This document shows positions 7,307-26,251 of a stretch of DNA of 64,000 bases, piece by piece. The translations under genes were made by a program, and so were the position numbers. Source of the stretch: Promethearchaeota archaeon (lineage in GTDB: Archaea; Asgardarchaeota; Lokiarchaeia; Sigyniarchaeales; SOKP01); contig JBHLOY010000004.1 in assembly GCA_048939995.1 (NCBI GenBank), positions 219,483-283,482 on the forward strand, given 5' to 3'. Numbering within the stretch: the stretch's first letter is position 1; every line of letters begins with the position of its first letter. A model generated the notes under the pieces. That model worked only from the letters and a program-made list of their open reading frames with translations, was not told the DNA's origin and made no database searches.

Positions 7307-8437
7307 ATGAGATCTGTAAAAAAGCTGTCAGCACTTCAAGAATGTATAAAATTTATTGAAGAAAAGAAAACAGATTTTGTAGAAGATGACTCTGCTCTAA
7401 CAATAGAAGATGGTGAAGAATCATTCACAATCTCAGATGATCATATTTTTAAAATACCTGATGTTGAAGATCAAAGACCTATAGGATTTGTTGATGGAGG
7501 AACAGAACCTATAATAAAAGGTTCAGATTTTAGTATTAGTCTTTGCCGAGTGGCAGGAATCATATTTAATTCGAGAAATATAGTTATGCCCCAAAACATT
7601 CCTTTTATGATTGAGTTTTATTCGGCTACTATTTCTGAAAAAAATGATAAAGGCGAAATCGTTTTTAGAACGCGATATTTCTCAAAGGAATTTGATTATA
7701 ATAAGTATTTGCCTCAAAAAGATCTTATTATTCCCTATAAGGATCCATCAATTAGAATGCAAGGTAAGTTTATCATGCCTATTGAGAATCATGGTAGTAT
7801 TGCAATGCGATTTAGTGAATGGACATATGCTAACCAATTCATTCAAAATGAATTAAATAATGGGGAAATCTTTATTCGCGATGGATCGCTGCAAACTGGA
7901 TACCCTGGGGAAGCTAGACTGGCTAATGAAGTACATTCTGCTGGAATTAATAAAAATGTATATATTACTGGCTTGTCAAAGTCATGCCGATTACTAAATA
8001 GAGGAGGAACCTCTTTAAATGCTCAAATAAATATAATTGGTAATTCCAAATATCCTAAATCACGATGGTACTATTATCCTACGATAAGGTTTGCCAAAGC
8101 TGACAATCAAGCAGATCTTTTCTTTCTTAAGTTAAATAAGGATTCACCATATTCATTTCGATTTGATATTTACCTAGAGCAATCTAATTTACTTGATAAA
8201 AAAGAAAGGGAAATAATTATTTCTAATATCGCTAATAATGCAAATGATCCAGCATTTCTAGGATATCCTTATGGCTTTATCAAAGTAGATCAATTAGCAA
8301 GAATCTCGAAGAGGGAAGTGGAGTCTGAAAAAATTCAGTTATTAGTTGAATTTGATAAAGATATATTTAATAAACATATAGTATCACGATTGCGTTCAAT
8401 AGATGCTCATGATATTTTAAATAAAATAAGAAAATAA
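7307..8437 (+). CDS. nurA: DNA double-strand break repair nuclease NurA
   Basis: FVDGG, RDGSL, LSKS and GYPYG..KVDQLARI motifs; first gene of the nurA-herA-mre11-rad50 cluster. Confidence 0.9.
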   Translation: MRSVKKLSALQECIKFIEEKKTDFVEDDSALTIEDGEESFTISDDHIFKIPDVEDQRPIGFVDGGTEPIIKGSDFSISLCRVAGIIFNSRNIVMPQNIPFMIEFYSATISEKNDKGEIVFRTRYFSKEFDYNKYLPQKDLIIPYKDPSIRMQGKFIMPIENHGSIAMRFSEWTYANQFIQNELNNGEIFIRDGSLQTGYPGEARLANEVHSAGINKNVYITGLSKSCRLLNRGGTSLNAQINIIGNSKYPKSRWYYYPTIRFAKADNQADLFFLKLNKDSPYSFRFDIYLEQSNLLDKKEREIIISNIANNANDPAFLGYPYGFIKVDQLARISKREVESEKIQLLVEFDKDIFNKHIVSRLRSIDAHDILNKIRK

Positions 8438-8454
8438 TATAAAATGATATTAGA

Positions 8455-10014
8455 ATGATGGATTTAGGAAAAAAGATTGGTAGTTTTGTCTCTGGTTCTT
8501 TTGTTTCTCTTATTTTAAGGCAGAAGTCCAAGGAGGAATTTGAATTAGGGCAACTATTTATAGCTGGAACGCATAAAGATGATTATTCAATATTTCAGAT
8601 AAAGGATTTATTCTATGGGAGTCAAATTCCAGAAAGTTCTTTAGAATTAATAGCAGGATATGGATTAGAAAGAGAAGGTATGGATCTTAAGATATATGAA
8701 CCTGAGTTAAGAAATTACGTTTTAGCTCAAGCAAAACCCCTTATTAATGTCAAAAACCTTCAATTGTTTTTACCAAAAAAGCTTCCTCAATTTTTTGGAG
8801 CAATTTATGAAATTACTGAGGACCATCTACAATTTTTTAAGGAAAAGAGATTTGATGATCCTATAACCTTAGGAAAAGTTCGCTCTGGCTCTAAAGTATT
8901 AGATATAGATGTGAGTGTTAGTGCTTCAGAAGTTTTGCGCCATCATGTTCTGATTCCAGCTACAACAGGAAGAGGTAAAAGTAATCTGGTAAAAGTAATT
9001 TTATATAACATTATCGAAAATTTATCGTGTGGGAAGTTAGTATTCGATCCACATAATGAGTACTATGGAACTCCAAAAGTAAAGGGTCTTAAAGATCACC
9101 CAAAAAGTAATGAATATGTAAAATATTATACTTCTCGAAACATACCTAAGAAACTTGATTTAAAATTTAATGTAAAATATCTTTACCCAAGTCATGTTTT
9201 AGGGAGTATAGATCTGTCTCAAGCACAAAGTGATGCACTAACTCTATACTATAGATTATATAAAAAGCAATGGATACAAAAGATTTTTGATAAAAATGAG
9301 AAGTTACCTGAAGGGATAAATACGATTACAATATCAGTCCTACGCAGAAAGCTAGCATTATTGCTTGAATTTGGATTTGATGATGAAGACAATATTATTG
9401 AAAATGGAATTTACACCCTCGATAGCTACGAATCTACTATTGAAGATATGATAAGTTTCTTAGCTAACGGAAAAACAGTAATCATTGATACTTCTCTTTT
9501 TTCAGGAAATGAAGAAATATTCATTGCTACAATTATAGTTGAGAGTATATTTAATCGATATAAATATTATAAGTTTAAAGATGAATTAGAAGATAAACCT
9601 GTTATAACGATTGTGCTTGAAGAAGCTCCTCGAGTAATTGGAATTAAAGCATTAGAAGTTAAAGAGAATGTTTTTGGAAAAATTGCAAGAGAAGGAAGAA
9701 AATTTAAGATTGGTTTAATAGGAATTACTCAATTACCAAGCTTAATTCCTCGTGAAATACTTGCTAATATGAATACAAAGATAATACTTGGTAATGAAAT
9801 GGGTCCAGAAAGGCGCGTATTAATAGAAAGCTCAGCACAAGATTTATCTGACGATAGTCAGACCATAGCAAGCTTAGATATTGGTGAAGCAATTGTTACT
9901 TCTAACTTTACAAAGTTTGCGATACCAATTAAAATACCATTATTCGATAAGTTGATAAGGAGTAATCTTCAATCTGAAAAGAAAATAAAGAAAGCTTCGC
10001 CGGGATTCTCATAA
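8455..10014 (+). CDS. herA: HerA DNA translocase/helicase
   Basis: N-terminal HAS barrel, H...[19 protein letters not shown] and IAREGRKF..G....TQ motifs. Confidence 0.93.
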
Positions 10015-10038
10015 TAGAATAAAAAAAAAGGCTAGATT

Positions 10039-11319
10039 ATGAAAATCAAATTTGCTCATTTGTCAGATTGCCATTTAGGTGCGTGGAGAAATGAAAGATT
10101 AAACGTTCTTGGATATAGAGCTTTTGAAGAGGCAATTAATATAATCATCAAAGAAGACGTCGATTTCGTGATAATTAGTGGAGATTTATTTGATGTTAGC
10201 AATCCAAAAGTTGAGGTTGTGGATTTAACGGTTAGAGAGCTAAAGAAATTAAAGGATAATGGGATACCTGTTTATGGCATTATGGGATCACATGACTTTT
10301 CTCCCTCAAATAAATCTATGATTCGGCCTTTAGTAACTGCCGGACTTTTTATAAACGTATCAGAAGGAGAAACTATCGATGATAAACTAAAATTATCTTT
10401 TACTCAAGACCCAAAAACTCAAATTAAATTAACCGGATTAAGAGCGAGAAAGAGAAGTTTGGAAATTGAAGATTATGAGAGATTAGATAAGCAGTTTTTA
10501 GAAACTGAACCTGGAATTAAGATTTTTGTTTTCCATACAATGTTAAATGAATTAAAACCAATCGAATTTAAACAGATGGAATCTACTCCTAAATCTGGTT
10601 TACCCAAAAATTTTCATTATTACGCAGGGGGGCATCTTCATAAAACTGTTCCACAAGAATTAAGAGCGAACCCAATAAAAATATCATATAAAAATAATAT
10701 CATTTATCCAGGAGCTTTAAGTTTAACTAATTTTCGAGAAATCGAGAGTTATAAATTTGGAGGCTTTTGTATAGTCTCGGGGGATATGGATGATAATAAA
10801 TGTGACTTTAGCGTTAAATTTATTCCTTTAAAAATAAAAGATGTAATTACTATGGATTTTAATTGTGATAATAAGACTGCTTTACAAGTTCAAAGCATTC
10901 TTAAAGAGAAGTTTGAGACTCTCAGTGTCAAAGATAAAATCATCACACTGCGAATTCATGGAATTCTATCATCTGGTAAAACCTATGAAATTAAAACTAA
11001 TAGTTTTATCCAATCTTTAAAACAAAATGGCGCTTATGAGGTTTTAATAAATAAGTTTTCACTATCCTCAAAAGAATTTACCTCTATAAAGGTTCCAACT
11101 GGAAAAAAAAATGAAGAAATAGAAGATGTATTTATTCATGAACATGTTCAAAATACAAATATTAAAAATGTTACTAAAAAAGATTTAGAGAACAGGATAC
11201 ATGAGCTTATAGCGATAATTGGAAAGGAAAGAGAAGAAGGTACGAAAGTAAAAGACTATAATGATTTATTAGTAACTAATTTTAAAAGAATTTTTCAGAT
11301 AGATGAAAAAAAGGAATGA
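10039..11319 (+). CDS. mre11: Mre11 nuclease
   Basis: Metallophosphoesterase motifs DCHLG, GDLFD, GSHD, GHLH and YPG; operon context. Confidence 0.92.
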   Translation: MKIKFAHLSDCHLGAWRNERLNVLGYRAFEEAINIIIKEDVDFVIISGDLFDVSNPKVEVVDLTVRELKKLKDNGIPVYGIMGSHDFSPSNKSMIRPLVTAGLFINVSEGETIDDKLKLSFTQDPKTQIKLTGLRARKRSLEIEDYERLDKQFLETEPGIKIFVFHTMLNELKPIEFKQMESTPKSGLPKNFHYYAGGHLHKTVPQELRANPIKISYKNNIIYPGALSLTNFREIESYKFGGFCIVSGDMDDNKCDFSVKFIPLKIKDVITMDFNCDNKTALQVQSILKEKFETLSVKDKIITLRIHGILSSGKTYEIKTNSFIQSLKQNGAYEVLINKFSLSSKEFTSIKVPTGKKNEEIEDVFIHEHVQNTNIKNVTKKDLENRIHELIAIIGKEREEGTKVKDYNDLLVTNFKRIFQIDEKKE

Positions 11320-11323
11320 GAAA

Positions 11324-13426
11324 ATGATCATCGAATCAGTGAAAATAAAGAATATAAGAAGTATAATGAATTTAGAAAGAGAATTTCCTGCTTCAACAAT
11401 TCTATTCTATGGAGATATTGGAAGCGGCAAATCTTCAGTCTTAAAAGCAATAGAATTTGGATTATTCGGAACGTTGACTGCCGCAGACTTAGGGGGTGAT
11501 TCTCTCTTAAGAAGAGGTGAAAATAGAGGTTCAGTTGAATTAACCTTTCTTATTGATAATAAAAAATATACTATTAAAAGGAAATTGAAAAGATTTATTA
11601 AAGATAAAAAGTCCGCTGTTACTCAAGAAGAAGGCTCATTTATTGAATATACAGACAATAATGTGTCAGAAACTTCTTATGCCCCTACAGATCTAAGAAA
11701 AAAAGTATTAGCCCTTCTAAATTATTCAATAACTCGTTATGAGAAGGCTCAAAAGATTCCGATATTTCGTTATACAGTCTACACTCCACAAGAACAAGTA
11801 AAGGAAATACTACAAGCGAAACCAGATGAAAGATTTGAAATTTTAAAAGAAGTTTTTGGTATTGAAAAGTATGAAATTGCTCTAAAAAATGTTAACGTAA
11901 TTAATGATTATTTATATCATGAAGGGAAAGAAACACAAATCATTCTAGAGACGATTGGACAACCTGAGCTCTTGATCCCTATGAAAGAACAGGAAATAGA
12001 GGAACAAAAAAAGAAAATTGAAAAAATACAAGGTGTCATAAAAGAAAAAGCAAAAGAATTGGAAAGAGAGGAACTAAAAGGTGAAAAAATACAGTTAGAA
12101 TTAAATGAATATTCTAAGAAACTTATTCAAATAGAAAATTATCAAAAAACTATTATAAGTTCAACAGATTCTAAAACGCAAAACCAAAACTCATTAGATA
12201 TATTAATCAGAGAAATTTCAGATTCTGAAATAGAAATAAATAACTTACCTCAGATAAAAATAGAGGCTGATATGACTGAAGAGTACTTAGAGGCTCAACT
12301 TAAGAAATCAAATAAACTCCAATCTAATATAGAGAAAAAAAAAGCAGTTTTGGAGAAAAAAGTTGAAGATATAAATAATCTTTTGAAAGAAGGTAAATGT
12401 TCTTTATGTGGCCAAGAAATACACGAACAAGAAAGATTTGATTTAGAACTTAAAGAGATAAATGAAACAATTAAGCGATATTCAAGAGAATTCCAGGATT
12501 TGGAGACTCAAATACTTAAATATGAATTACATTTAAAAACTTTGAAAGAGTATAATAGTGTTAAAACACAGAAGGAAGCTTTATTAAAGTTACTTGAGGA
12601 AAAAAGGAAAAGAGAAGGCGCATTAAACAAAATTATCAATCAATATAATGAAATTATTGAACAGAACAAAAAATTAATAGTTGATGTTCTTAATAAGTAC
12701 GATATAACAGATTTAGAAAAGTTAAAAGAACTAGAAGCCAAATTGAATGCTAAATTTATAAACCAGAAGAATTTAATTAAGGAAATAAATGAAAAAAAGG
12801 TAGAATTTGAAAAAAGTTTAGTCGCTGAACAGACGAATCTTAAAGTCTTAAATTCAGAATTAATCACATTAAAAGATGATCTAAAAAGAAAAAATCTACT
12901 TAGAAAAAAACTTGAATATGTATCAGATTTAAGAGACTGGATTAGAGATAAATTCCAGATCCTTATAAGGGATATTGAAAGAGAAATTATATCTTCAAGT
13001 GCCCTTCAATTTAATGAATATTTTAGAGAGTGGTTTACAACTTTAGTAGAGGATCAAAATATTGAAGTAGAAATTCGATTAGATGATTTTGAGCCCGTAA
13101 TAACAGTGAATGGGTATGATTCACCATTTAATGATCTATCTGGAGGAGAAAAAAGCGCCTTATCTTTATCATACAGACTTGCTTTAAATAAGATAATCAA
13201 TGAACGATATCAAGAAGTTAAAACTAAGGATCTATTAATTTTAGATGAACCTACTGATGGATTCAGTCAAGAGCAAATTAATAAGATGCAAGAAGTATTT
13301 GAGAAACTAGATACTTCCCAAATGTTCATTATTTCTCATGAGAGGAATCTTGATTCATTTGTAACTGATATTTTTAACTTTAAAAAAGAAAGACATCAAA
13401 CAAAAGTTATACAAGAACAAATATGA
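11324..13426 (+). CDS. rad50: Rad50 SMC-like ATPase
   Basis: Walker A GDIGSGKSS, coiled coil with CSLCG zinc hook, LSGGE signature, LDEPT Walker B, ISH switch. Start at ATG 11324 (track 11303). Confidence 0.93.
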   Translation: MIIESVKIKNIRSIMNLEREFPASTILFYGDIGSGKSSVLKAIEFGLFGTLTAADLGGDSLLRRGENRGSVELTFLIDNKKYTIKRKLKRFIKDKKSAVTQEEGSFIEYTDNNVSETSYAPTDLRKKVLALLNYSITRYEKAQKIPIFRYTVYTPQEQVKEILQAKPDERFEILKEVFGIEKYEIALKNVNVINDYLYHEGKETQIILETIGQPELLIPMKEQEIEEQKKKIEKIQGVIKEKAKELEREELKGEKIQLELNEYSKKLIQIENYQKTIISSTDSKTQNQNSLDILIREISDSEIEINNLPQIKIEADMTEEYLEAQLKKSNKLQSNIEKKKAVLEKKVEDINNLLKEGKCSLCGQEIHEQERFDLELKEINETIKRYSREFQDLETQILKYELHLKTLKEYNSVKTQKEALLKLLEEKRKREGALNKIINQYNEIIEQNKKLIVDVLNKYDITDLEKLKELEAKLNAKFINQKNLIKEINEKKVEFEKSLVAEQTNLKVLNSELITLKDDLKRKNLLRKKLEYVSDLRDWIRDKFQILIRDIEREIISSSALQFNEYFREWFTTLVEDQNIEVEIRLDDFEPVITVNGYDSPFNDLSGGEKSALSLSYRLALNKIINERYQEVKTKDLLILDEPTDGFSQEQINKMQEVFEKLDTSQMFIISHERNLDSFVTDIFNFKKERHQTKVIQEQI

Positions 13427-14820: not shown

Positions 14821-15051
14821 TTAATAAAGCTCTAATTTAAGGTTATCAATTAGAGATGCTATATATTGAGCATTAAATGATTCTTTGTCTTCTAATTCAT
14901 CATAAGCTCTCATATACTCACTCAATTGTTTTTGTTTCTCAAAATATTCTAATTCAAGATACCCTATCGAAAATTCAGGTAAAAATTGCTTGCATGAATC
15001 ATCAATGACTTTTCTTTCCATTTCATCCAAATTTTTCACGTCAATTTCCAT
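14821..15051 (-). CDS. Small hypothetical protein homologous to the helical insert of the 18.5-19.9 kb paralogs
   Basis: LPEFSIGYL...KESFNAQYIASLIDNL aligns with IPDYAMGYL...KESYKGLSLKNWIDML of 19293-19910. Confidence 0.7.
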   Translation of the reverse strand: MEIDVKNLDEMERKVIDDSCKQFLPEFSIGYLELEYFEKQKQLSEYMRAYDELEDKESFNAQYIASLIDNLKLELY

Positions 15052-15128
15052 TAAAACCACAACCTTTTTAGAAAGTTTAAAATTTTGTTTTATCTGAGTA
15101 AATAACCATTATCTCTCAATTTAAAAAA

Positions 15129-15184
15129 TTTGATAAGAAGATTTTTTATAGGTTTGATAAATTTTTTTATCAAAATTATTTTTA
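15129..15184. promoter_or_regulatory. Operator-like element with perfect palindrome TTTGATAA-N6-TTATCAAA (15153-15174)
   Basis: Seen directly; ungapped similarity (42/56 by hand count) to 19995-20050. Confidence 0.6.
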
Positions 15185-15214: not shown

Positions 15215-17470
15215 TTAGCGATAAAGATCCTCTGGTAGTTCCTTGATAGCTTCTTTATATGAGTGCTTAGCTTTATCTGCCCCCCTTTTTATTTTATCAG
15301 TTGCTTTTTCAAAATCCTCTTGAGAAATTTTGACTTTCGTATATGAGGCAGGATTTGTGAGATCGGCATTAGTATCGAATACTACTCTCCTAATTGCTAA
15401 AATTGAGGCTTCCTCGCATACTGCTTTAATATCAGCGCCAGTATATCCCTCTAACATTTCTGCTAATACTTCAATATCAACATTATTATCTATAGGACGA
15501 TTAGATAAATGAATCCCAAATATCTTCTTACGAGAAATTTTATTTGGTAATGGAATCTCTATGTGTCTTCCAAATCTACCTGATCTCAATAAAGCTGGAT
15601 CTAATAAATCGGGGCGATTTGTAGCAGCAATCAAGACTACATTCTTCAATTCTTCAAGTCCATCCATTTCTGTTAGAAGTTGAGCAACAACTTGTTCATT
15701 TACTCTTGAACTAGAAGATTCAGCCCGTCTTGAAGCTATAGCATCTATTTCATCAAAGAAAATTATGCAAGGCGCAGCAGATCTTGCCTTTCGAAAGGTT
15801 TCTCGAACCGCTTTAGCACTTTCACCTACCCATTTAGATAGAAATTCGGGACCTTTTACTGAAATAAAATTGATTTCGCTTTCGTGAGCAAGTGCTTTAG
15901 CCAATAAAGTTTTACCTGTCCCAGGGAGTCCAAACATTAAAATTCCACTTGGAGGTTTTGATTTCATGTATTTATAAAACTCTGGATATTTTAATGGCCA
16001 TTCTATCACTTCTCTTAATTGTTGTTTAACATCTTCTAAGCCGCCAATATCGTCCCAAGTTTCTGTTGGCTGAGTAATCAACACTTCCCTTAATGCAGAG
16101 GGCTCAATACTGTTTAAGGCTTCAATGAAATGATGCATTTTAATTTTTAATTTACTTAATACTTCTTCAGGGATAGGTTTATCTAAATCTATTTCGGGGA
16201 TAATTTCCTTAATAGCTAGCATTGCTCCTTCTCTACAGAGGGCTTTAATATCAGCACCAATAAATCCATGAGTCTTTTCAGCTAATTCTCTTAAATCTAC
16301 ACTTTCATCTAAGGGTATCCCTCGAGTATGAATTAATAAAATTTCATTTCGTCCATCAGTATCTGGAACCTTGATTTCAATTTCCCGATCAAATCTACCT
16401 GGTCTCCTTAAAGCATTATCAACATTATTAACTTTATTCGTCGCTCCTATAATTATCATTTCACCCCTTCCCTTTAAGCCATCCATTAGAGAAAGCAATT
16501 GAGCAACGACTCTTGATTCTGCTTGGTTTTTTCCTTCATCTCTTTTTGGAGCAAGAGAGTCCAATTCATCTAAAAAAATTATTGATGGAGCATTTTCTTT
16601 CCCCTCTTCGAAAATTTTTCTTAGATTTTCTTCACTTTGACCAAAAAATTTACTCATTATTTCAGGGCCACTGACACTTATAAAATGAGCATCAGTTTCA
16701 GAAGCAACAGCTTTTGCTATTAAGGTCTTTCCTGTACCAGGGGGGCCATGAAGTAAAACTCCTTTAGGAGGATCAATTCCTATCCTCTCAAATAGTTCTG
16801 GATGTCTTAATGGAAGTTCAATCATCTCTCTTATCTTCTGGATTGTATCTTCTAAACCCCCTATATCCTCATAAGTTATTCTTTCACGAATTTTTTGTAA
16901 TTTTTCCTCTATATCGCTGATTCCTTCATACTTTACCACTTTTCTTTTAATCTCAATTGAAGCTTGAGTATTTTCAGTAAAAATTATTTTTGTATTTAGA
17001 TTAATTCTAACAGCTTCTGTTTTAGGTGTATAATCCATAACAACTAAATCAATCCTATGAGCCATAGCATAGAAACTTAGACTATCACCCTTCATGATAA
17101 CTCGATTTTCTAATTTTCTTGCTAAAGCTTGGGGATCTCGTGGGACTAAAGAAGAATCTAAACCAGCAAAAGTTATCACTTCGGCTAAATCAGCCTTTAT
17201 TTTTTTTATTTCTACTAACTCATCAATGGAGGCATTTAGATTTCGTCTTAAAGAAGGATCCATTCTAATTATTCCCTTTCCTTTGTCTTCACTCCTTCCT
17301 GTAGATAATAAAGCAACAGTTTTTTTGTTTAATACCGGGTGGTTGATCCGTATTATATCACCAATTTTTAAATCTAATATGTTTATTACATTTGGATCAA
17401 TTCGAACAATTCCTCTGCCAGCATCTTCCTTAAACGCATCTTTAATTCTTAATTTTTTTTCTACTTCCAA
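15215..17470 (-). CDS. cdc48: CDC48/VAT/p97 family AAA+ ATPase
   Basis: N-domain DAGRGIVRID, D1 GPPGTGKT/LDELD, D2 GLPGTGKT/FDEID, C-terminal HbYX (LYR). GGGGTGA RBS favours TTG 17470. Confidence 0.95.
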   Translation of the reverse strand: MEVEKKLRIKDAFKEDAGRGIVRIDPNVINILDLKIGDIIRINHPVLNKKTVALLSTGRSEDKGKGIIRMDPSLRRNLNASIDELVEIKKIKADLAEVITFAGLDSSLVPRDPQALARKLENRVIMKGDSLSFYAMAHRIDLVVMDYTPKTEAVRINLNTKIIFTENTQASIEIKRKVVKYEGISDIEEKLQKIRERITYEDIGGLEDTIQKIREMIELPLRHPELFERIGIDPPKGVLLHGPPGTGKTLIAKAVASETDAHFISVSGPEIMSKFFGQSEENLRKIFEEGKENAPSIIFLDELDSLAPKRDEGKNQAESRVVAQLLSLMDGLKGRGEMIIIGATNKVNNVDNALRRPGRFDREIEIKVPDTDGRNEILLIHTRGIPLDESVDLRELAEKTHGFIGADIKALCREGAMLAIKEIIPEIDLDKPIPEEVLSKLKIKMHHFIEALNSIEPSALREVLITQPTETWDDIGGLEDVKQQLREVIEWPLKYPEFYKYMKSKPPSGILMFGLPGTGKTLLAKALAHESEINFISVKGPEFLSKWVGESAKAVRETFRKARSAAPCIIFFDEIDAIASRRAESSSSRVNEQVVAQLLTEMDGLEELKNVVLIAATNRPDLLDPALLRSGRFGRHIEIPLPNKISRKKIFGIHLSNRPIDNNVDIEVLAEMLEGYTGADIKAVCEEASILAIRRVVFDTNADLTNPASYTKVKISQEDFEKATDKIKRGADKAKHSYKEAIKELPEDLYR

Positions 17471-17486
17471 TTTAATCACCCCTTTT

Positions 17487-17511: not shown

Positions 17512-18498
17512 TTACTTATTAAGTAATCCCGATGCTATTTCAAAGGCATAATTATAATCAAATATCTTTAATCCCTTTGTTTTTGAAGCTTCTCTTAAAA
17601 TTTGACTCTCTGTATTCGCTTTCAGTGCTCCTAGCGCTAAAGCACCAATACAAAATACTCCTGGATAAATCTCATCATTTTTATGTTTTGGTTTAATACC
17701 TTCAATACCGTAGGGAGGTACAAGATTAATATCGATAACAATCTTTTTACCTGGTAATTTTTGCATCCATTCTGAACTTAATATTTCAACTCCCGCTGCT
17801 GCGAGAGACCATATTACAAGTGCATCTTCTGCGATTTCAAACCGTTGTTCTGGTCCTGGAGCAAATACTCCAAAAATCTTTTCTGATTCTCCTCCGGTTT
17901 CTTCATTAAGCTCTTTTGCTAAAGTATTTATGAAATCTTTATTAGATTTCTCCCAAGTCTCAACAATATAGGTTTTACACCCCATCTTTCCCGCTAAAAC
18001 TGCAGCAATTCTACCAACAGGTCCTGCACCAAATATCACCACTTTCTTATCTTTTAAATCTCTAATACCATGTTTCTTATTGGCAATACTAATTGTCATG
18101 GCGACGACCGCAGATGCAGTAGTGTGCGATCCTCTGGGGTCAATAATGATAGGACACTCGAAAGGTGGTACTAATGAATTTTTAACGGCTTTAGCTATTT
18201 TTTCGCCTTCTTTTACATCTGAACCACCAATAAAGAAAGCTGTAGGGGCACTAGGTTTCCTAGAAAATATTGCATCTTGAACTAATTTAGGAACATATTC
18301 TGCTTTCATTTTATTGAGAGGTATAACAATATCAAAACCAGCATCATAGGCCATATTTATATCAAATGGAGATGCATTATCGTCTGTATCAAAAAAGTAA
18401 CAAATTTTATCGGAGGTATCTTGTTTCTTTATAATAATTGGAGTTAATTCGATTATAGATTTTTTTCCTAAAATACTTTCCACACTTTTCTCAACCAT
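17512..18498 (-). CDS. mtdB: NAD(P)-dependent methylene-tetrahydromethanopterin dehydrogenase (MtdB/MtdA family)
   Basis: SPFDINMAYDAGF, QDAIFSR, FIGG, VPPF, DPRGSHTTA, Rossmann GAGPVG, AAAGV, DINLVPP.GIEG and IGALALG match the methylotroph Mtd family. ATG 18498 preferred. Confidence 0.85.
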   Translation of the reverse strand: MVEKSVESILGKKSIIELTPIIIKKQDTSDKICYFFDTDDNASPFDINMAYDAGFDIVIPLNKMKAEYVPKLVQDAIFSRKPSAPTAFFIGGSDVKEGEKIAKAVKNSLVPPFECPIIIDPRGSHTTASAVVAMTISIANKKHGIRDLKDKKVVIFGAGPVGRIAAVLAGKMGCKTYIVETWEKSNKDFINTLAKELNEETGGESEKIFGVFAPGPEQRFEIAEDALVIWSLAAAGVEILSSEWMQKLPGKKIVIDINLVPPYGIEGIKPKHKNDEIYPGVFCIGALALGALKANTESQILREASKTKGLKIFDYNYAFEIASGLLNK

Positions 18499-18541: not shown

Positions 18542-19273
18542 TTATTTTGAAATATCAATTTCTACATCTTTTTCGAAATCCTTTTCAAGTTCCTCAGTTT
18601 TAATAGTTCTTTTAATTTTAACTTGTTCCATTTCTATGCCTAAATCTTCTGATAGTTTTTCAATCCCATTAAAATGTCGAACATCGCATATAAACATCCC
18701 TTTCAACTTCTTTCCTTCTACATTCTTCGCAAGATTAAGAATATTCATCATCATCCATGCTTCTCTTACTTTATATCTTACTTCATCTTCTTGATTATCA
18801 TAATCCTTCTTTAAATACTCCTTCCATAATATTAACTTTTGAAACAGTTCATCATCTTCGGGAACTTTTCCTTGCTTTTGGATTAGTTCTCTAATTCTAC
18901 ATTCAAGATTTTTAATTGTAGATCTATGTTCATCTAAGGCTGATGAAAGATATAATTCAGCATTTTCAGAAATATCAGCAAGTTTGAAAGGAATCTTCCT
19001 TTTTTCAAATAGAGTTTTTAATGGATCATTTGCTTGATTTGCGTTATTCCAAAAATTCGGCTTTTCTTCCACAGCAAAATCAGGTTTATACTTTTCAATT
19101 AACGAATCAATCAATTGGAGGTATTCTTTTGAAATTAAATGAAGATTCCAAATAATATCTTCTTTAATTTCATCAGGAACTTCAAACCACCAATCAATTG
19201 GGAATTCACTCTCAACCATTATCAATTTTAAATATTTATCCTTTAATGATTTTAATTCTAACACTTCTGGCAT
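18542..19273 (-). CDS. Hypothetical protein, possible TraB/TIKI/ChaN-like fold
   Basis: KPDFAVEE, IPFKLADI, REAWMM and CDVRHFNGIEKL resemble TraB-family motifs; GGAGGAG RBS. Confidence 0.65.
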   Translation of the reverse strand: MPEVLELKSLKDKYLKLIMVESEFPIDWWFEVPDEIKEDIIWNLHLISKEYLQLIDSLIEKYKPDFAVEEKPNFWNNANQANDPLKTLFEKRKIPFKLADISENAELYLSSALDEHRSTIKNLECRIRELIQKQGKVPEDDELFQKLILWKEYLKKDYDNQEDEVRYKVREAWMMMNILNLAKNVEGKKLKGMFICDVRHFNGIEKLSEDLGIEMEQVKIKRTIKTEELEKDFEKDVEIDISK

Positions 19274-19292: not shown

Positions 19293-19910
19293 TTAAAATA
19301 TTATATTTTGTATTGTATGTTTTTTATTATAAGAAACTACTTTTACACCTAATTCCCTCAAATTGTTTGTAATCTCTGGGCAAATATCTTCACAAATATC
19401 TTCTTGAACAAAATGTACAAAAGCAATGATGTCTTTTTCGTACTTTGACAATAAGTCTAACATTCTCTTAACAATCCATTGAGGTCTTAGTTTTAAACTT
19501 AGAAATATTTCTTTTTCCTGAATCTCTTCACCTAACATGTCAATCCAATTTTTTAAACTAAGCCCTTTATATGACTCTTTCTCAATCATATTTTCATATT
19601 CTTCAAATAATTCAGTTTGTAACTGTTGGTTTTCAATAATTTCTTGATATAAATATCCCATTGCATAATCTGGAATATCAACTTGGAAATAAGGGATTTT
19701 AAGCTCATTTAATGTTAGAGCAAACGGAGTTTTGCTAAATTCTTTCATATTAACTTGAAAATCTACTGTCACAAAATCTACATTGTTCTTTCTTAAAAAT
19801 TCTCTTAGTTTTGTGGTATCTTTATTTTGAAAATACTTAGCATTTTCTTTCGAGGAAATATAGGCAATAATTTTTTTATTTTTTATAGGCTTTAATTCCA
19901 AAACCTCCAT
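19293..19910 (-). CDS. Hypothetical protein, divergent paralog of 18542-19273
   Basis: Shared EVLELK start and DF, KIP(F/Y)..xDI, A..YL, W, R..W and LG anchors; GAGGTG RBS. Confidence 0.7.
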   Translation of the reverse strand: MEVLELKPIKNKKIIAYISSKENAKYFQNKDTTKLREFLRKNNVDFVTVDFQVNMKEFSKTPFALTLNELKIPYFQVDIPDYAMGYLYQEIIENQQLQTELFEEYENMIEKESYKGLSLKNWIDMLGEEIQEKEIFLSLKLRPQWIVKRMLDLLSKYEKDIIAFVHFVQEDICEDICPEITNNLRELGVKVVSYNKKHTIQNIIF

Positions 19911-19922
19911 TTTATAAAACAC

Positions 19923-20247
19923 CTCTCTCTAAACCTTTATTTAAAAGTTTAATATTACTCTAAGATTATAATCAAATTCTCAGAATAAAAAGAGTTTGAC
20001 AAGAAAATTTTGTGATAATTTGATAATTTTTTTAGTCAAGATTTCTTTTAACAAAATTTTATTTGTTATATGCAAAATCGAAATTTCTCCGACTGATAGC
20101 GCCATTCTCATTTTTGAAGTAGAAAATCTCATTGATCAAATCCTGACAAAGTTTAAATAGATCGATAACTATCATTATCATGAAGAGAAATAAAATTGTC
20201 AAATTTCAAAATTAACAAAAAATTTAATCAAAAGAGGAGATTTAACC
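19923..20247. promoter_or_regulatory. Divergent promoter region with several GA(T/C/G)AA-N6-TT(A/G)TC-like boxes and a TATA box
   Basis: Boxes at 20022-20037 (GATAA..TAGTC), 20164-20179 (perfect) and 20185-20200 (GAGAA..TTGTC); TTTAAATA at 20152-20159; RBS GAGGAG at 20234-20239. Confidence 0.6.
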
Positions 20248-22794
20248 ATAGGTATTTATAGTATCTTATCTCACCCTTTTCGACAAAAAATCCTACTCTT
20301 GTTAGAAAAAGAAGGATTCATCCCATACACCGATTTAATGGAAAAAATGGGTATCAATCAAACAGGTCAGTTAAATTTCCATTTGAAAAAATTAGGGTCC
20401 TTAATAAATAAAGATAAAAAATCTTATTATTTAAGTGAAGATGGCAAAAAAATTTTAAGAATTATGAATTTGAGCAAGCGTATTTTAGCAGGTGAAGAAA
20501 TAGAATACTTAGATAAAAAAGGGAGTGAAATTAGTAGAATAGGAGTGATTTTATGTGGTTGTAATACTGAAATATCCAATATAATAAATATCAATGCATT
20601 GGAAAGTCAAATTGAAAAATTAGATGGAGTAGTTTCAGTGAAGGTTTTTGATAATTTATGCCAAGAAAAAAATTTAAATAATATAACAAATTGGTCAAAA
20701 GAAAATTTTTTAAACAAAGTTGTTATAGCTGCTTGTTCCCCTAAAACTCATCAACATATTTTTGAGCGAATTTTCAAAGATGTGATTGATAATGCAAATA
20801 TTGAAATAGCAAATATTAGGGAACAATGTTGTTGGGTTCATCATTCAAATATTCAACAATTTGATCCTTTATTAGCATTAAAGAAAGCGAGTTTATTAAT
20901 TGAGGCTGCAGTTGAACGTGTAAGGCTTCAAAAAGAGGTTAAAATAAAAACTGTAGAAGTGGAAAAAAGCTGTGCAATATTAGGGGGTGGTATCGCAGGT
21001 ATGACATTAGCCCTTAATCTTTCACGTGCAGGGATAAAAGTATACCTAATTGAAAAATCACCTACTTTAGGCGGGAAAGTAGCCAGATGGCATCGGATTT
21101 CTAACATGGGGGATTGCTCTATATGTTTTATTTCCGAATTAATTGGTGAAATCGTAAAAGAAAAAAATATTGAAATTTTGACTAACACTGAAGTAGAAAC
21201 CGTTTCTGGAGAAGTAGGAAATTTTAGCTTAGATTTAATCAAGAAACCTCGATTTGTTGATGAGAAAAAGTGTACTGGGTGCAAACAATGCATAAATGTG
21301 TGTGGCAAAGAAAAGAAAAATCAGTATGAATTTGATTTAACTAATCGAAAAATAATATATATCCCCTTCCAAAATGCATATCCATATGCTCCTCTAATTG
21401 ACGAAGAAGATATTAATAATTGTTTAAACTGTAAGATATGTGAACGTGTTTGTATTAATAAAGCAATAGATCTAAGCCAAAAAGTTGAAAAAGTTCGAAT
21501 TAAAGTCGGAGTTAAAGTTATAGCTATAGGTGCTGACCTGTACTCCAATCTAGTGAAATATCTATATAATCCTCAAAAAGATATTATCACTTCTGCTGAA
21601 TTTGAGAGAATTCTATCTTCGGATGGCATTACTGAGGGAAAATTGCTAAGGTTATCAGATAAAAAACCGATAAATTCCATTTCAATCATTCAAGAAGTTG
21701 GTCCATCTAAATATCTTGCAGAATATTCTGAAAACTTAGCGCAAAAATATATTGAGGATATTAAAATAAGAAGTCCTGACTGTGAAGTAAATGTTTTTTA
21801 CGATTTAAGTAAATTAAAAAATAAAGATGAGATATTTCTAAAATCAACCAATCCAAGATTTCTTTACGCTAATAACATATCTATTGAGTCTAATGGTAAA
21901 ATTAACTATGTTATAGCCGATAATATTGAATTTCCAAGCGATCTGATAGTTTTAAATCTCAAATGTATACCTAATAAAGATCTAAAAATATTACGTAGAT
22001 TCATGGATTTTACATTGAATGATTACGGTTTTATGAGTGAAGAAACCCTAGCGTCAGGTATTTATGGAGTTGGAACAATATTTGGGGCTTTAAATTACCA
22101 AACTACCCTTTCTACAGTGAATACTGTTGCGTTAAAAATTATTGCACTACTCTCAAATGATTATTTATTAGCTGAATTTACTGGAATTGAAATTAATGAA
22201 GATAAATGTGGATTATGTGGATTATGTGAGAAAGCATGTCCTTATAATGCAATAACTATAGAATCGAATAAGATTAATATTGATAAATTTAAATGTAAAG
22301 GATGTGGTACATGCGCTGGAGTGTGTTCTACAAACGCCATTGAAATGAACATCGATACTTCAGAAAAGATTTTAAGAACAATTGAGATTTATTCAAAATT
22401 TGCTAAAAATCCTAAAATTATCGCTTTTTGTTGTTCTTCTTGTGGTTATGCCGCAGCTGATGATGCTGGTCTAAAAAAGGAGTTATATCAACCAAATATT
22501 TTTGTGATCCGCATTCCCTGTACTGGAAGATTAGATACTGAATTTATTTTTAAATCTTTTGAGGTCGGATTTGATGGAGTAATGGTAATAGGATGCAGGA
22601 AAGATGCTTGCAGATATATTGATGGTATTGAAAAAGCACAAAAAAAGATAACTCTCCTAAAAAGGATATTAAATCCCAAATATAGCAACCGAATTATATT
22701 TAAAAATTTAAATGCTGTAGAGGGCCATAAGTTTGCTGAGATCGCAAATAAATTTTATAATATTTTAAAGGAGGGGGCTACTAATCAAACTTAA
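20248..22794 (+). CDS. Fusion of ArsR-like winged-helix DNA-binding domain, degenerate HdrA (FAD/Fe-S) and MvhD
   Basis: N-terminal IYSILSHPFRQKILLLL...GQLNFHLKKL...YYLSEDGK; HdrA motifs RIGVILCGC, AACSPKTH, ANIREQCCWVH, GGGIAGM, DCSIC and two ferredoxin pairs; MvhD motifs FCC..C.YAAAD, RIPCTGR, GC....C. Start extended to ATA 20248 because helix 1 lies upstream of TTG 20299. Confidence 0.88.
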   Translation: MGIYSILSHPFRQKILLLLEKEGFIPYTDLMEKMGINQTGQLNFHLKKLGSLINKDKKSYYLSEDGKKILRIMNLSKRILAGEEIEYLDKKGSEISRIGVILCGCNTEISNIININALESQIEKLDGVVSVKVFDNLCQEKNLNNITNWSKENFLNKVVIAACSPKTHQHIFERIFKDVIDNANIEIANIREQCCWVHHSNIQQFDPLLALKKASLLIEAAVERVRLQKEVKIKTVEVEKSCAILGGGIAGMTLALNLSRAGIKVYLIEKSPTLGGKVARWHRISNMGDCSICFISELIGEIVKEKNIEILTNTEVETVSGEVGNFSLDLIKKPRFVDEKKCTGCKQCINVCGKEKKNQYEFDLTNRKIIYIPFQNAYPYAPLIDEEDINNCLNCKICERVCINKAIDLSQKVEKVRIKVGVKVIAIGADLYSNLVKYLYNPQKDIITSAEFERILSSDGITEGKLLRLSDKKPINSISIIQEVGPSKYLAEYSENLAQKYIEDIKIRSPDCEVNVFYDLSKLKNKDEIFLKSTNPRFLYANNISIESNGKINYVIADNIEFPSDLIVLNLKCIPNKDLKILRRFMDFTLNDYGFMSEETLASGIYGVGTIFGALNYQTTLSTVNTVALKIIALLSNDYLLAEFTGIEINEDKCGLCGLCEKACPYNAITIESNKINIDKFKCKGCGTCAGVCSTNAIEMNIDTSEKILRTIEIYSKFAKNPKIIAFCCSSCGYAAADDAGLKKELYQPNIFVIRIPCTGRLDTEFIFKSFEVGFDGVMVIGCRKDACRYIDGIEKAQKKITLLKRILNPKYSNRIIFKNLNAVEGHKFAEIANKFYNILKEGATNQT

Positions 22795-23530
22795 ATTTAT
22801 TGTAGCTTCATTAACTTCATGCAGTGGATGTATTTCAACATTGATGGCTTTAGATATGTTTTCTCAATTTTTAGAAAGGACCGAAATTTCATTTTTCCCA
22901 TTTATTTCAGACCAAATTGAAGTTAATGATTCAGATATCGCATTAATAGAGGGTTGTGTTTCAGAAATCAGTCAAATAGCAACTTTGAAGAATATTAGGA
23001 AACATGCAAAAAAAGTTTATGCTTTAGGTACCTGTGCTACTTTTGGGGGAATTTTGGGATTATCTAAAAGAAAAAATTCTGATCAAATCTCAAAATTTAT
23101 AGATATTGATGGATTTATACCTGGTTGCCCCCCTCCAACAAATCTGCTAGGAAATTCCTTAATGAGACTAATTGAAAATAAGAGCATTATTTTATCAGAA
23201 AAAAATATGTGTATTTCTTGTCCTCTCAAAGATGAAATGCATTTAAATTCTCAAATCTCAAAACTTAGTCCTTCTAATTCTGAAATTATGTCAGATAAAC
23301 GAGAATGCTTTTTAAATAATGGAATTTTATGTTTAGGACCGATTACTCGAGAAGGGTGTAATAATAAATGTATAGAACTGGGAATACCATGTGAGGGATG
23401 CTTAGGTCCTCCTAAAAAACAGTTTACTTCAAACCTAATTAATTTCTTAAGTCTGGTTCAACTATCCAATAAATTAAAGAGATATTCGGGTATTTTTTAC
23501 AGATTTTCAAAACCAACATTAAGAGGGTGA
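22784..23530 (+). CDS. Group 3 [NiFe]-hydrogenase small subunit (MvhG/HydD-like)
   Basis: (M)KLKFIVASLTSCSGC lies upstream of the track start; EG, GTCATFGG, PGCPP, CISCP, CLGPIT..GC...C and PCEGC motifs. Inferred ATC start after GGAGGGG. Confidence 0.88.
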   Translation: MKLKFIVASLTSCSGCISTLMALDMFSQFLERTEISFFPFISDQIEVNDSDIALIEGCVSEISQIATLKNIRKHAKKVYALGTCATFGGILGLSKRKNSDQISKFIDIDGFIPGCPPPTNLLGNSLMRLIENKSIILSEKNMCISCPLKDEMHLNSQISKLSPSNSEIMSDKRECFLNNGILCLGPITREGCNNKCIELGIPCEGCLGPPKKQFTSNLINFLSLVQLSNKLKRYSGIFYRFSKPTLRG

Positions 23531-23536
23531 GGAAGA

Positions 23537-24835
23537 GTACAGAAGGTAATAAATGTATGTTCAAGAGTTGAAGGCCATGGGAAAGTAAATTATTTCATAC
23601 AAAATGAGCATATTGACCATGTTGAATTCGAAATTTCTGCATTTAGGGGATTCGAAAACATTTTAATAGGTAAGAAATTAAGTGATATCCCTAAGATTGT
23701 TTCACGAATTTGCGGTCTATGTCATGCTTCCCAAACAATTGCTAGTTGTAAAGCAATTGAAAAAATTTATGAAATCCAACCTAGTTCTCAAGCTACTTTA
23801 CTTCGAAGATTATTAATGACGGGAGAATTAATTAAATCTCATATTATGCATTTTTTCTTTCAAACCTTACCAGATCTTTTAGAAATTTTTCAAGTGTTTA
23901 AAAATGGAATTGATTCATACAATTTAATTAGATTTGATTCTCAATTGAGTACTTGCGTTTTTGATTTAATTAAAGCAGGAACTGAGTTAAATAATCTTTT
24001 TGGAGGAAGGATAATTCATTTGATTACCCCTGTTCCCGGAGGAATGATCTACTACCCTTCAAAAAAGAAAATTCTACTTGCCCAAAAATATTTGCAGAAA
24101 TCTGCTTCTAATATACAATATGTTTTAGATCGCTTCGTTGAATTATTCTCTACTAAGAATCCTCCTTATGAATTTAATATATCGAATCTATCATATCTAG
24201 GAATGACTAATCAAGGAAAATATGATAGATATAATGGGACTCTAAGCATTATTCCTTTCAATCAGAATAGAATAAATTTTGAAATCAATGATTACGAAAA
24301 CTATTTTGATAAAGACTCTTGTTTGTTTGGAATAAAATTTTTATCTGATATAAAGAATATCTTAACTGGACCTATCGCAAGATTCTTTTTAGTAAAAAAT
24401 AATAATGAAATTGAAAAAAATACTATAATAAATAACTTTGATAATAATTGGAAAGAAAATCTATTACTTATGAACATTTTGCAACTATTAGAGATCTCTA
24501 ATGAAATAAAGGGTAGTCTAGAGATATTAAATAAACATAGTCTAGAAATTAAAGAACCACTTCCCTCTCTTAATTCCACTTTAAATCAAGAGGGTATTGG
24601 AATGGTTGAAGCTCCACGTGGGACCCTCATACACCACTACCATTTGAATAAATCTAAGGTTATTGATAATGTTAAACTCTTTATAGCCACTGAAATTAAT
24701 TTTCCCCTTTTGAATGAAAAAATTAAAAATTACGCTCAAGAGTTATACAAAAAAGAAGATTTAGAATCTCTCAATAGAAAAGTTCAAATTATGATAAGAG
24801 CTTTTGATCCATGTATCTCTTGTGCCACACATTAA
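23537..24835 (+). CDS. Group 3 [NiFe]-hydrogenase large subunit (MvhA/HydA-like), no C-terminal extension
   Basis: RVEGHG, RGFE and L1 RICGLC lie in frame upstream of the first ATG (23816); EAPRG; L2 DPCISCATH directly followed by the stop. Start uncertain (GTA 23537 inferred). Confidence 0.88.
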   Translation, partial: VQKVINVCSRVEGHGKVNYFIQNEHIDHVEFEISAFRGFENILIGKKLSDIPKIVSRICGLCHASQTIASCKAIEKIYEIQPSSQATLLRRLLMTGELIKSHIMHFFFQTLPDLLEIFQVFKNGIDSYNLIRFDSQLSTCVFDLIKAGTELNNLFGGRIIHLITPVPGGMIYYPSKKKILLAQKYLQKSASNIQYVLDRFVELFSTKNPPYEFNISNLSYLGMTNQGKYDRYNGTLSIIPFNQNRINFEINDYENYFDKDSCLFGIKFLSDIKNILTGPIARFFLVKNNNEIEKNTIINNFDNNWKENLLLMNILQLLEISNEIKGSLEILNKHSLEIKEPLPSLNSTLNQEGIGMVEAPRGTLIHHYHLNKSKVIDNVKLFIATEINFPLLNEKIKNYAQELYKKEDLESLNRKVQIMIRAFDPCISCATH

Positions 24836-24855: not shown

Positions 24856-25869
24856 ATGAATAATATCGAAACGATTCGCAAGGATAATGTAGAACCTGTG
24901 CAACTATGTGAAATTTTCTTACTCTACTTTGATGAGGAATTTGGCCCAATGCCACTTCTTATCACTCCGGATGAATCTTTAAAAAATAATCTCGATGTTA
25001 TGCGGTTAATTAGAATCCATTCCATTTGGTTTCTTGATATAAGCGATCAGACCTCTCCTGATCGTATGGATTTAGAATATAAGGAAAAAATCTATTTTGC
25101 AAAGAAATTTTTAGTACCTTCACAGAGAGAAAAACGACGGTCAGGTTCTGAAGGAGATACTTATGAAACACTCGTTTTAATTTTAGCTTTACCAGTTGAT
25201 ATGGATATCTTTGGAGGAGCTCTTCTCAAAAGAATGGCTGAACGATTAACAAAGCATTTTGCATTAAAATTCACTCGCTTGATAGATTCTGAAGTGGCAA
25301 AAATGAATGCCATAAAAACGCCTTCAACCTTAACTTTAATTCAGATCGGCGATACTATTAAAAAACGAATAAGCGTTTTAATCAAAAATACATGTGTCCA
25401 ATATTTTGATGCTGTAATCAAAAAAACGGATTCTACAACTTTCAAACTTCAAAAAGCTATATCATATTTATCGTTAAAAGGAGTCCCAATTAACTATATT
25501 GTAAGTGAAGAGGGAAATTTAGGCTTTTCAAATGTAAAACTGTTTGAATCAAAAGTTTTAGCAAATGACACATATGGAATTCGAAATCAATTTAAGATTT
25601 TAAGCACTGATATAGATCCAGATACTCAGGAAGTTGAAATCTTAATTAAAAATCAAACAAGTAAAGAATTTAATAACATATATGCAAAAGTTATTTCTAT
25701 TCAAGAATTCTTCGAAAAAGAGGTTTTACGTGAAAATATTGAAAAATGGCTTCCTGAAGAGGAATTAATTATTATTTTACCAAATATAATCTCAAATTTT
25801 GAATACTATTTTTCTATTCAAGATGTTAGTTCCAATCAGACTCTGTTTAAACAAAAACTAAGATTGTAA
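24856..25869 (+). CDS. Hypothetical protein with N-terminal uDENN/longin-like segment
   Basis: IFLLYFDEEFGPMPL resembles the first strands of uDENN/longin domains; beta-rich C-terminus. Confidence 0.55.
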   Translation: MNNIETIRKDNVEPVQLCEIFLLYFDEEFGPMPLLITPDESLKNNLDVMRLIRIHSIWFLDISDQTSPDRMDLEYKEKIYFAKKFLVPSQREKRRSGSEGDTYETLVLILALPVDMDIFGGALLKRMAERLTKHFALKFTRLIDSEVAKMNAIKTPSTLTLIQIGDTIKKRISVLIKNTCVQYFDAVIKKTDSTTFKLQKAISYLSLKGVPINYIVSEEGNLGFSNVKLFESKVLANDTYGIRNQFKILSTDIDPDTQEVEILIKNQTSKEFNNIYAKVISIQEFFEKEVLRENIEKWLPEEELIIILPNIISNFEYYFSIQDVSSNQTLFKQKLRL

Positions 25870-25882
25870 CTTCGAAAATTTC

Positions 25883-26251
25883 TTAAAATTGAAACTCGCG
25901 ATTTCTTAGTTTCGAAACTAAATGCCCCCTACTAAGAAGTTGTATCCCAAATTGATTAGAATAGTCGCGAGCAAAATCAGTTGCGATATTGCACACCATT
26001 ATTCCCCCTTCAATGTCCGGAACATCAAGGCATGCTTTATGGAGTTGTCGTAATTGAGTTATAGAGATTTCTCTTTTCCAATCTCGAATAAATATTCCAT
26101 ATTTTCCATATTTTCCATCATCCACAATAGCATTGAAATCCCATAGTTTTCCGGATTTTCCTTTTAATTTTTGAGGATTATTATTATACTGAAATTTTTC
26201 AGAAAAGACTTTTTTTGCTAATTCAGCTAAAGGGGTTTCATTAAATGACAT
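25883..26251 (-). CDS. Mrr-like PD-(D/E)XK restriction-endonuclease-fold protein, probably degenerate
   Basis: GKSG...F strand, GIMV....T..AR.Y....GIQL tail; catalytic D and E-x-K not conserved. Confidence 0.6.
   Translation of the reverse strand: MSFNETPLAELAKKVFSEKFQYNNNPQKLKGKSGKLWDFNAIVDDGKYGKYGIFIRDWKREISITQLRQLHKACLDVPDIEGGIMVCNIATDFARDYSNQFGIQLLSRGHLVSKLRNREFQF

Follow-up and report, generated by a model that had tools for sequence, protein, structure and literature searches.

PutA- and BirA-type proteins are fusions of an enzyme with a regulator, and SurR of the Thermococcales is a stand-alone ArsR-type redox switch with a CxxC thiol that responds to sulfur and both activates and represses energy genes. 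In solved Hdr complexes, HdrB receives the high-potential electron from the HA4 cluster, and a mobile arm includes the N-terminal domain of HdrA (PMC12350162, PMC13580544). A 2011 review reported that no H2 sensor had been found in Methanothermobacter (PMC3087415), and no archaeal H2 sensor was described in the literature that we searched. The Asgard group 3 hydrogenase subgroups 3e-3l were named more recently (bioRxiv 10.1101/2024.07.04.601786), and that text does not mention a winged helix-turn-helix domain (wHTH), HdrA or sensing. Here we describe a locus in a 64-kb stretch of the 3.75-Mb, 98% complete genome of a Promethearchaeota archaeon (contig JBHLOY010000004.1, positions 219,483 to 283,482; below, the window, in whose numbering coordinates are given), where a single gene joins a wHTH to HdrA and MvhD and is followed by the two subunits of a [NiFe]-hydrogenase. 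The encoded complex is probably a dual repressor and activator, built from a duplicated Mvh-HdrA module, whose DNA binding would follow the redox state that H2 sets in the complex.

The fusion gene (20248-22794, plus strand) was one stop-free frame of 848 amino acids (aa) with an ATA start after GAGGAG. An ArsR-like winged helix of the DUF7347 type (aa 1-82, 20248-20493, plus strand, DUF7347 E 1.5e-10) with the conserved recognition helix TGQLNFHL was followed on the same strand by the HdrA module (20533-22392, E 2e-97 to 8RVU) and the MvhD/FlpD domain (22411-22770, E 1e-33). The MvhG-like small subunit (22784-23530, plus strand, ATC start) overlapped the fusion stop, had intact cluster cysteines and matched 5ODC_E best (2e-33). 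The MvhA-like [NiFe] large subunit (23537-24835, plus strand, GTA start) matched 5ODC_F best (1e-48) and contained RVEGH, RICGLC, APRG and DPCISCATH; a stop followed directly, so that the protein ended at the terminal His without a C-terminal extension. The first-pass annotation, made from the sequence alone, had claimed this order of domains in one open reading frame followed by group 3 hydrogenase subunits, and the domain matches agreed, the best matches of both subunits being group 3 proteins. Its statement that hdrB and hdrC are missing from the window also held, with hdrBC encoded elsewhere in the genome; no protease gene was found in the 64 kb either. It knew of no description of such an architecture, and none was found in the literature searched, most subscription papers lying outside the reach of that search.

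When a profile of the wHTH plus the HdrA N-terminal domain was used (E <1e-40), the fusion was found in 121 of 400 Asgard genomes, and it was found in Bathyarchaeia too, which ruled out an assembly chimera. The search across Asgard genomes that had been proposed as a check thus came out in favour of the architecture, because orthologs kept the wHTH and mvhG(-mvhA) followed the fusion wherever the contig extended, with a truncated fusion (L042) as the single exception. At least 119 other homologs among the matches listed were 66-85% identical to the window fusion. Matches that covered both the wHTH and HdrA made up a handful of clusters among 1.8 billion representatives, and the fusion clusters carried the names Sigynarchaeum, Helarchaeota, Frey/Jordarchaeia, Borrarchaeum, Hermodarchaeota, Thorarchaeota and Bathyarchaeia. 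No hdrBC adjoined the fusion operon in about 60 loci, and no histidine kinase or response regulator was conserved beside the operon in the loci compared. Column conservation in close homologs was highest in the wHTH among the domains (0.885) and comparable to the other domains at depth. The ratio of nonsynonymous to synonymous substitution rates (dN/dS) was 0.04-0.09 for the wHTH and <0.15 throughout, which ruled out a pseudogene; the fusion is under purifying selection. Its spread over several Asgard classes and Bathyarchaeia supported an ancient origin. Three single-contig Asgard genomes (G135, G143 and G117) had neither the fusion nor its MvhG nor the MtdA-like gene described below, so the module is patchy, and cultured strains may be without it. 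One Borrarchaeum-family genome (G304) contained two diverged copies of the fusion operon (L044 and L045), one of them near fwdD/fwdB-like genes.

The ATA, ATC and GTA starts of the fusion, mvhG and mvhA were placed by means of orthologs, most of which had ATG, TTG or GTG there. Non-canonical starts were found in 5 of 31 copies of the fusion, 6 of 35 of mvhG and 3 of 32 of mvhA, and TTG opened 21 of the 35 mvhG copies. The neighbours up1, up2, mtdA and the gene at 25883 had a canonical start in all copies (ATG in 47 of 51), and the weak starts clustered in the three operon genes. The weak starts noted earlier are real in this genome but specific to its lineage. Because several different odd codons appeared, low translation of the operon seems to be tolerated. 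Selenocysteine (Sec) read-through of the in-frame TGA joining mvhG and mvhA was ruled out, since the frames differed in most orthologs.

An AlphaFold2 model of the wHTH domain gave a confident winged helix (predicted local distance difference test score, pLDDT, 88.6) with alpha1-4, a wing, alpha5 and the conserved recognition helix. The nearest folds were ArsR/HxlR regulators (Foldseek E about 2e-3, a weak value of the kind typical of small domains, probability 1.0), and a hidden Markov model search matched 1Y0U (E 3e-6). The homodimer model scored 0.50, with 0.00 for the best control, contact agreement of at least 75% and pLDDT of at least 84; among solved pairs 20 of 30 reached the mark set for this score, and among single chains 1 of 23 did. 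The predicted interface was formed by residues 2-13 and 65-87 (alpha1/alpha5). The models thus supported a wHTH homodimer, which may stem only from the likeness to solved ArsR dimers. The model of the full-length fusion was poor (predicted template modelling score 0.31) and was not used.

The promoter between the fusion and the divergent operon had been said to contain operator palindromes, and a palindrome with the consensus TTGAYAA-N6-TTRTCAA was indeed present. A matrix whose training left out both this genome and the two relatives closest to it ranked 20020-20039, 20162-20181 and a site at 15154 as the top three intergenic matches in the whole genome. A composite matrix gave two strong genome matches, both at this locus (49.3 and 38.9 bits), and the next reached 13.1 bits; weaker operator matches such as C23:175934, near an RFAP-synthase-like gene, failed this matrix. 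In the fusion promoter (20152-20202, plus strand) a predicted TATA box at 20152-20159 directly preceded tandem operators at 20162-20181 and 20183-20202. In the promoter of the divergent operon (19984-20039, minus strand, 38.9 bits) the operator pair at 20020-20039 and 19996-20015 instead preceded a TATA-like box at 19984-19991. The same order was found before a 79-aa gene (15118-15173, minus strand), where the operator pair with the perfect site 15154-15173 and its TATA box gave the best genome match (49.3 bits). Among relatives, the predicted TATA box of the fusion operon started about 10 nt before the operator in 23 of 25 promoters, with the operator covering the expected start region, and the operator pair of target promoters ended about 4 nt before the predicted TATA box in 34 of 40. 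In archaea, an operator after the TATA box usually represses and one before it usually activates. Because the operators take the position of a repressor at the complex's own operon and of an activator at the targets, the geometry points to a regulator with outside targets and not just to an enzyme that keeps its own production in check. The sites of RbkR, 1-12 nt upstream of the TATA box, were likewise read as activation (PMC5397151).

The motif accompanied the fusion also where frhB or hdrA lay upstream, and it did so into Frey-, Hermod- and Thorarchaeia; an identical 20-mer occurred twice in the Bathyarchaeia locus. It stood before up1/up2-mtd, mostly unlinked from the fusion, in 21 of 23 fusion-positive genomes compared to 2 of 15 fusion-negative genomes, and was absent from four fusion-less genomes of genus g12 and from G180. 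We consider it very probable that the wHTH of the fusion binds the palindrome.

The fusion retained the ligands of HA3, HA1/2 and HA5/6, the DCSIC pair and the four [2Fe-2S] cysteines of MvhD, together with GGGIAG for binding of flavin adenine dinucleotide (FAD), EFER and the conserved Lys. At the position of the former HA4 [4Fe-4S] motif (21685-21747, plus strand) zero cysteines remained. Across the family, Loki-, Hel- and Sigynarchaeia had no HA4 cysteine, Freyarchaeia had one and the deeper members had all four, with a shortened loop throughout. Because HA4 is lost here and feeds HdrB in the solved complexes, the window fusion is predicted to be unable to bifurcate to HdrBC by the known route. 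By sequence, the wire is otherwise intact from the NiFe site through the MvhG clusters, HA1/2, the MvhD [2Fe-2S] cluster, the FAD site and HA3 to HA5/6. What this lineage has deleted is the HA4 exit to HdrCB, and the ArsR-like wHTH lies about 15 residues from the HA3 domain. The family-specific residues Trp281 and Tyr617 are invariant, at positions where the genome's other HdrA proteins have the L/F of LDKTF and the I of GPKDI, and suggest a remodelled flavin pocket. In MvhA, the four metal cysteines were present in every full-length family sequence; four Thorarchaeia-family loci had lost the RxEG glutamate, and Borrarchaeum-family loci the terminal His. All Lokiarchaeia orthologs stopped at the His, and deep members carried 5-13 extra residues.

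Elsewhere the genome encoded a canonical VhuG-VhuA-VhuU-HdrC-HdrB cluster, along with a protease, the hyp genes and additional hdrABC operons. The canonical locus (L071:1465-5760, C17:418964-423259) had a split VhuA and a selenocysteine VhuU with the extension, and adjoined hdrC-hdrB. Several hdrA genes were interrupted by an in-frame TGA that is likely Sec, and two MvhG-like genes of 460-500 aa (C17:206245-207750 and C17:395844-397223) stood without a large subunit alongside. Across five genomes, VhuA was 79-91% identical compared to 49-79% for the window-type MvhA. In a tree of large subunits, 24 wHTH-linked copies fell on one side of a branch with 99/97 support and 17 canonical group 3 copies fell apart from them, in an unrooted tree whose long branches meet. 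Relatives with HA4-keeping fusions (G099, G121 and G330) carried canonical copies as well. These comparisons supported the view that the fusion complex duplicates, and does not provide, the catabolic Mvh-Hdr. A selenium-free backup of Vhu-Hdr was disfavoured, as HA4 is lost and cysteine-type HdrABC operons are present.

The duplication bears directly on the strongest alternative, namely a bifunctional enzyme-regulator like RbkR or PutA in which a real flux is accompanied by regulation as a second job. The flux could run from reduced ferredoxin to H2 via HA6/HA5/HA3 without bifurcation, or, in the HA4-keeping lineages, by bifurcation with an HdrBC from another locus. The window proteins have intact RxEG and APRG residues and every ligand other than those of HA4, dN/dS is low, and the genome has many HdrB/C partners; RbkR, an active enzyme with a wHTH, is a precedent (PMC5397151). 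However, RbkR never co-occurs with its unfused counterpart (PMC5397151), whereas the slow-evolving canonical Vhu-Hdr and about 14 other HdrA-like genes co-occur with the fusion. Low abundance would be implied by the weak starts and the self-repressing operator position, and some members have lost the catalytic glutamate. The retention of HA4 in deep lineages speaks for such an enzyme. The activator geometry, the contrast in evolutionary rate and the pattern of start codons tilt the balance towards a regulator, and we consider this explanation unlikely.

The predicted targets in the window all lie on the minus strand. The divergent run begins with up1 (19293-19910) and continues with up2 (18542-19273), a gene for an MtdA-like NAD(P)-dependent methylene-tetrahydromethanopterin dehydrogenase (17512-18498, E 3e-29 to 6TGE) and finally a CDC48-family ATPase (15215-17479), whose co-transcription is presumed. 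The 79-aa up1-like gene with its own operator pair, orf79, is at 14821-15060. The MtdA-like gene was present in 113 of 121 fusion-positive genomes compared to 31 of 279 other Asgard genomes. Elsewhere, genus g12 had Sec-hdrA as a predicted target, and Bathyarchaeia a GcvH-NuoEFG-like operon. Genes up1, up2 and orf79 formed a paralogous family, with up2 usually the N-terminal domain of the MtdA-like enzyme, to which it is fused in most relatives; matches of up1/up2 to TraB/GumN were weak (score 0.82-0.83) and serve only as a lead. In one Bathyarchaeia locus (L115:4378-14443), genes for GcvH, NuoE/F/G-like and NuoB-ferredoxin proteins lay upstream of the fusion operon with an operator in activator position, and hypA and hypF were nearby. 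In another genome (G357, L089:1563-2900) the same wHTH was joined straight to up2-MtdA, the arrangement that a loss of the intervening hdrA-mvhG-mvhA would leave behind.

These targets are one-carbon (C1) and Hdr redox genes and not hydrogenases, which would suit a regulator that reads a signal other than H2. The FAD/DCSIC site could read ferredoxin, F420 or thiol redox, or the nickel supply could be read via MvhA maturation, with the hydrogenase pair serving for reset or reference. Methanogens change between their Mtd and Elp routes depending on nickel (PMC3087415, PMC12350162), the large-subunit motifs are eroded in Thorarchaeia, and in G357 the wHTH is joined straight to up2-Mtd. Yet from the Asgard classes to Bathyarchaeia the fusion has kept mvhG-mvhA at its side with every metal ligand, and we regard a signal other than H2 as improbable. 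That the wHTH is structural or a non-specific DNA binder and another regulator, for example one of the proteins behind the six DUF7347-like matches in the genome, owns the palindrome is very improbable, for although the motif occurred without a detected fusion in G257 and G173, it tracked the fusion through several rearrangements into Bathyarchaeia and was absent from the four fusion-less genomes of genus g12 and from G180.

In the redox-set dual regulator that we favour, a wHTH dimer would, with strong support from the operators, bind TTGAYAA-N6-TTRTCAA, repress its own operon and activate the up1-up2-mtdA operon and orf79; in relatives activation would extend to Sec-hdrA, and in Bathyarchaeia to the NuoEFG-like module. 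More tentatively, the dead-ended flavin/Fe-S chain would take its redox state from H2 turnover at the NiFe site. The HA3 domain is part of the HdrA mobile arm, and redox-linked movement of the arm would reposition the wHTH pair and alter DNA binding. As its output, the switch would adjust NAD(P)- and Hdr-linked C1/redox routes to the H2 status. The stronger proposal, a kinase-free archaeal H2 sensor in which a group-3-derived hydrogenase feeds a dead-ended HdrA, the mobile arm carries the DNA-binding domain and H2 directly switches a dual repressor and activator of C1 and Hdr genes, is in our judgement evenly balanced.

Several observations weigh against a dedicated H2-set regulator. The window protein retains catalytic residues and the ferredoxin-exit clusters, about ten Fe-S clusters are costly for a pure sensor, and deep-branching members from Thor-, Hermod- and Borrarchaeia and Bathyarchaeia keep all four HA4 cysteines. 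The motif counts come from kin and are not independent, up1 is missing as well from most of the motif-negative genomes, which may contain paralogs instead, and G257, which is 99% complete, is an unexplained exception. In this genome no operator stood in front of vhu, hdr, hyp, hycI or F420-mtd, and a global H2 regulon was rejected on these grounds. The first-pass annotation had proposed that the Mvh-HdrA wire was repurposed as a regulator. The intact ArsR-like fold, the conserved operator and the duplication of the catabolic Mvh-Hdr supported this in part; unlike that of HupUV/HoxBC, the predicted regulon excludes the catabolic hydrogenase and hyp genes. Two of its supporting signs were local: the degenerate HdrA holds for the window but not for the deep members, and the missing maturation extension holds here and in Lokiarchaeia but not where deep members keep a short C-terminal tail. 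Likewise, its term 'one-component' fits in that no kinase is involved, but not a complex of three genes.

Two further features of the window were recorded. The gene after mvhA (24859-25869), linked to it only in some relatives, had no Pfam match and contained a YFDEEFGP motif with some resemblance to uDENN/longin domains. At 7307-13426, a cluster of HerA, Mre11-like phosphoesterase and Rad50-like ATPase genes was an ordinary archaeal repair operon.

H2 exchange is central to Asgard syntrophy models and to hypotheses on the origin of eukaryotes, and the locus gives a concrete protein, operator sequence and target list with which sensing can be tested in vitro. If the proposal is true, the locus is an independent invention of H2 sensing out of bifurcation machinery, and direct H2-dependent DNA binding would be a new kind of signalling architecture. 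A second 'group 3c hydrogenase' in the annotation of an Asgard genome should then not be taken as evidence of catabolic capacity, and the natural HdrA without HA4 offers a tool with which to study bifurcation.

Compared to the group 3c MvhAGD-HdrABC complexes (5ODC, 8RVU), the window complex shares homology in HdrA, MvhD, MvhG and MvhA and most cofactor ligands, and its HdrA-MvhD fusion resembles HdrA2 (NF040770). In contrast to them, it has an N-terminal wHTH, lacks HA4, an hdrBC in the operon and a cleavable extension, and forms a separate long-branch clade; the fusion also scores far below the NCBIfam cut-offs (550 of 1100 for HdrA2). The wHTH-linked clade may be one of the subgroups 3e-3l (bioRxiv 10.1101/2024.07.04.601786). 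With the group 2b sensors HoxBC-HoxJ-HoxA and HupUV-HupT (PMC8229454) it has in common the proposed H2 sensing, a large subunit without extension and co-existing energy-converting hydrogenases. Unlike these, it is of group 3 ancestry according to its best matches, carries the DNA-binding domain inside the complex, has no kinase or response regulator at the fusion loci, and has a predicted regulon that excludes the catabolic hydrogenase and hyp genes. SurR, by its description, matches the proposed role as an archaeal ArsR-type dual redox switch but has no hydrogenase attached. RbkR (PMC5397151) shares the wHTH-enzyme fusion, operators just upstream of the TATA box that were read as activation, and its own gene in the regulon; the window sensor differs in that it would be a multi-subunit Fe-S/flavin/NiFe wire and not a ligand pocket, with the unfused enzyme in the same genome. 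By these comparisons the complex appears to be neither an Mvh-HdrABC nor a group 2b sensor as these are defined, and would best be described as resembling a cross of HoxBC and RbkR.

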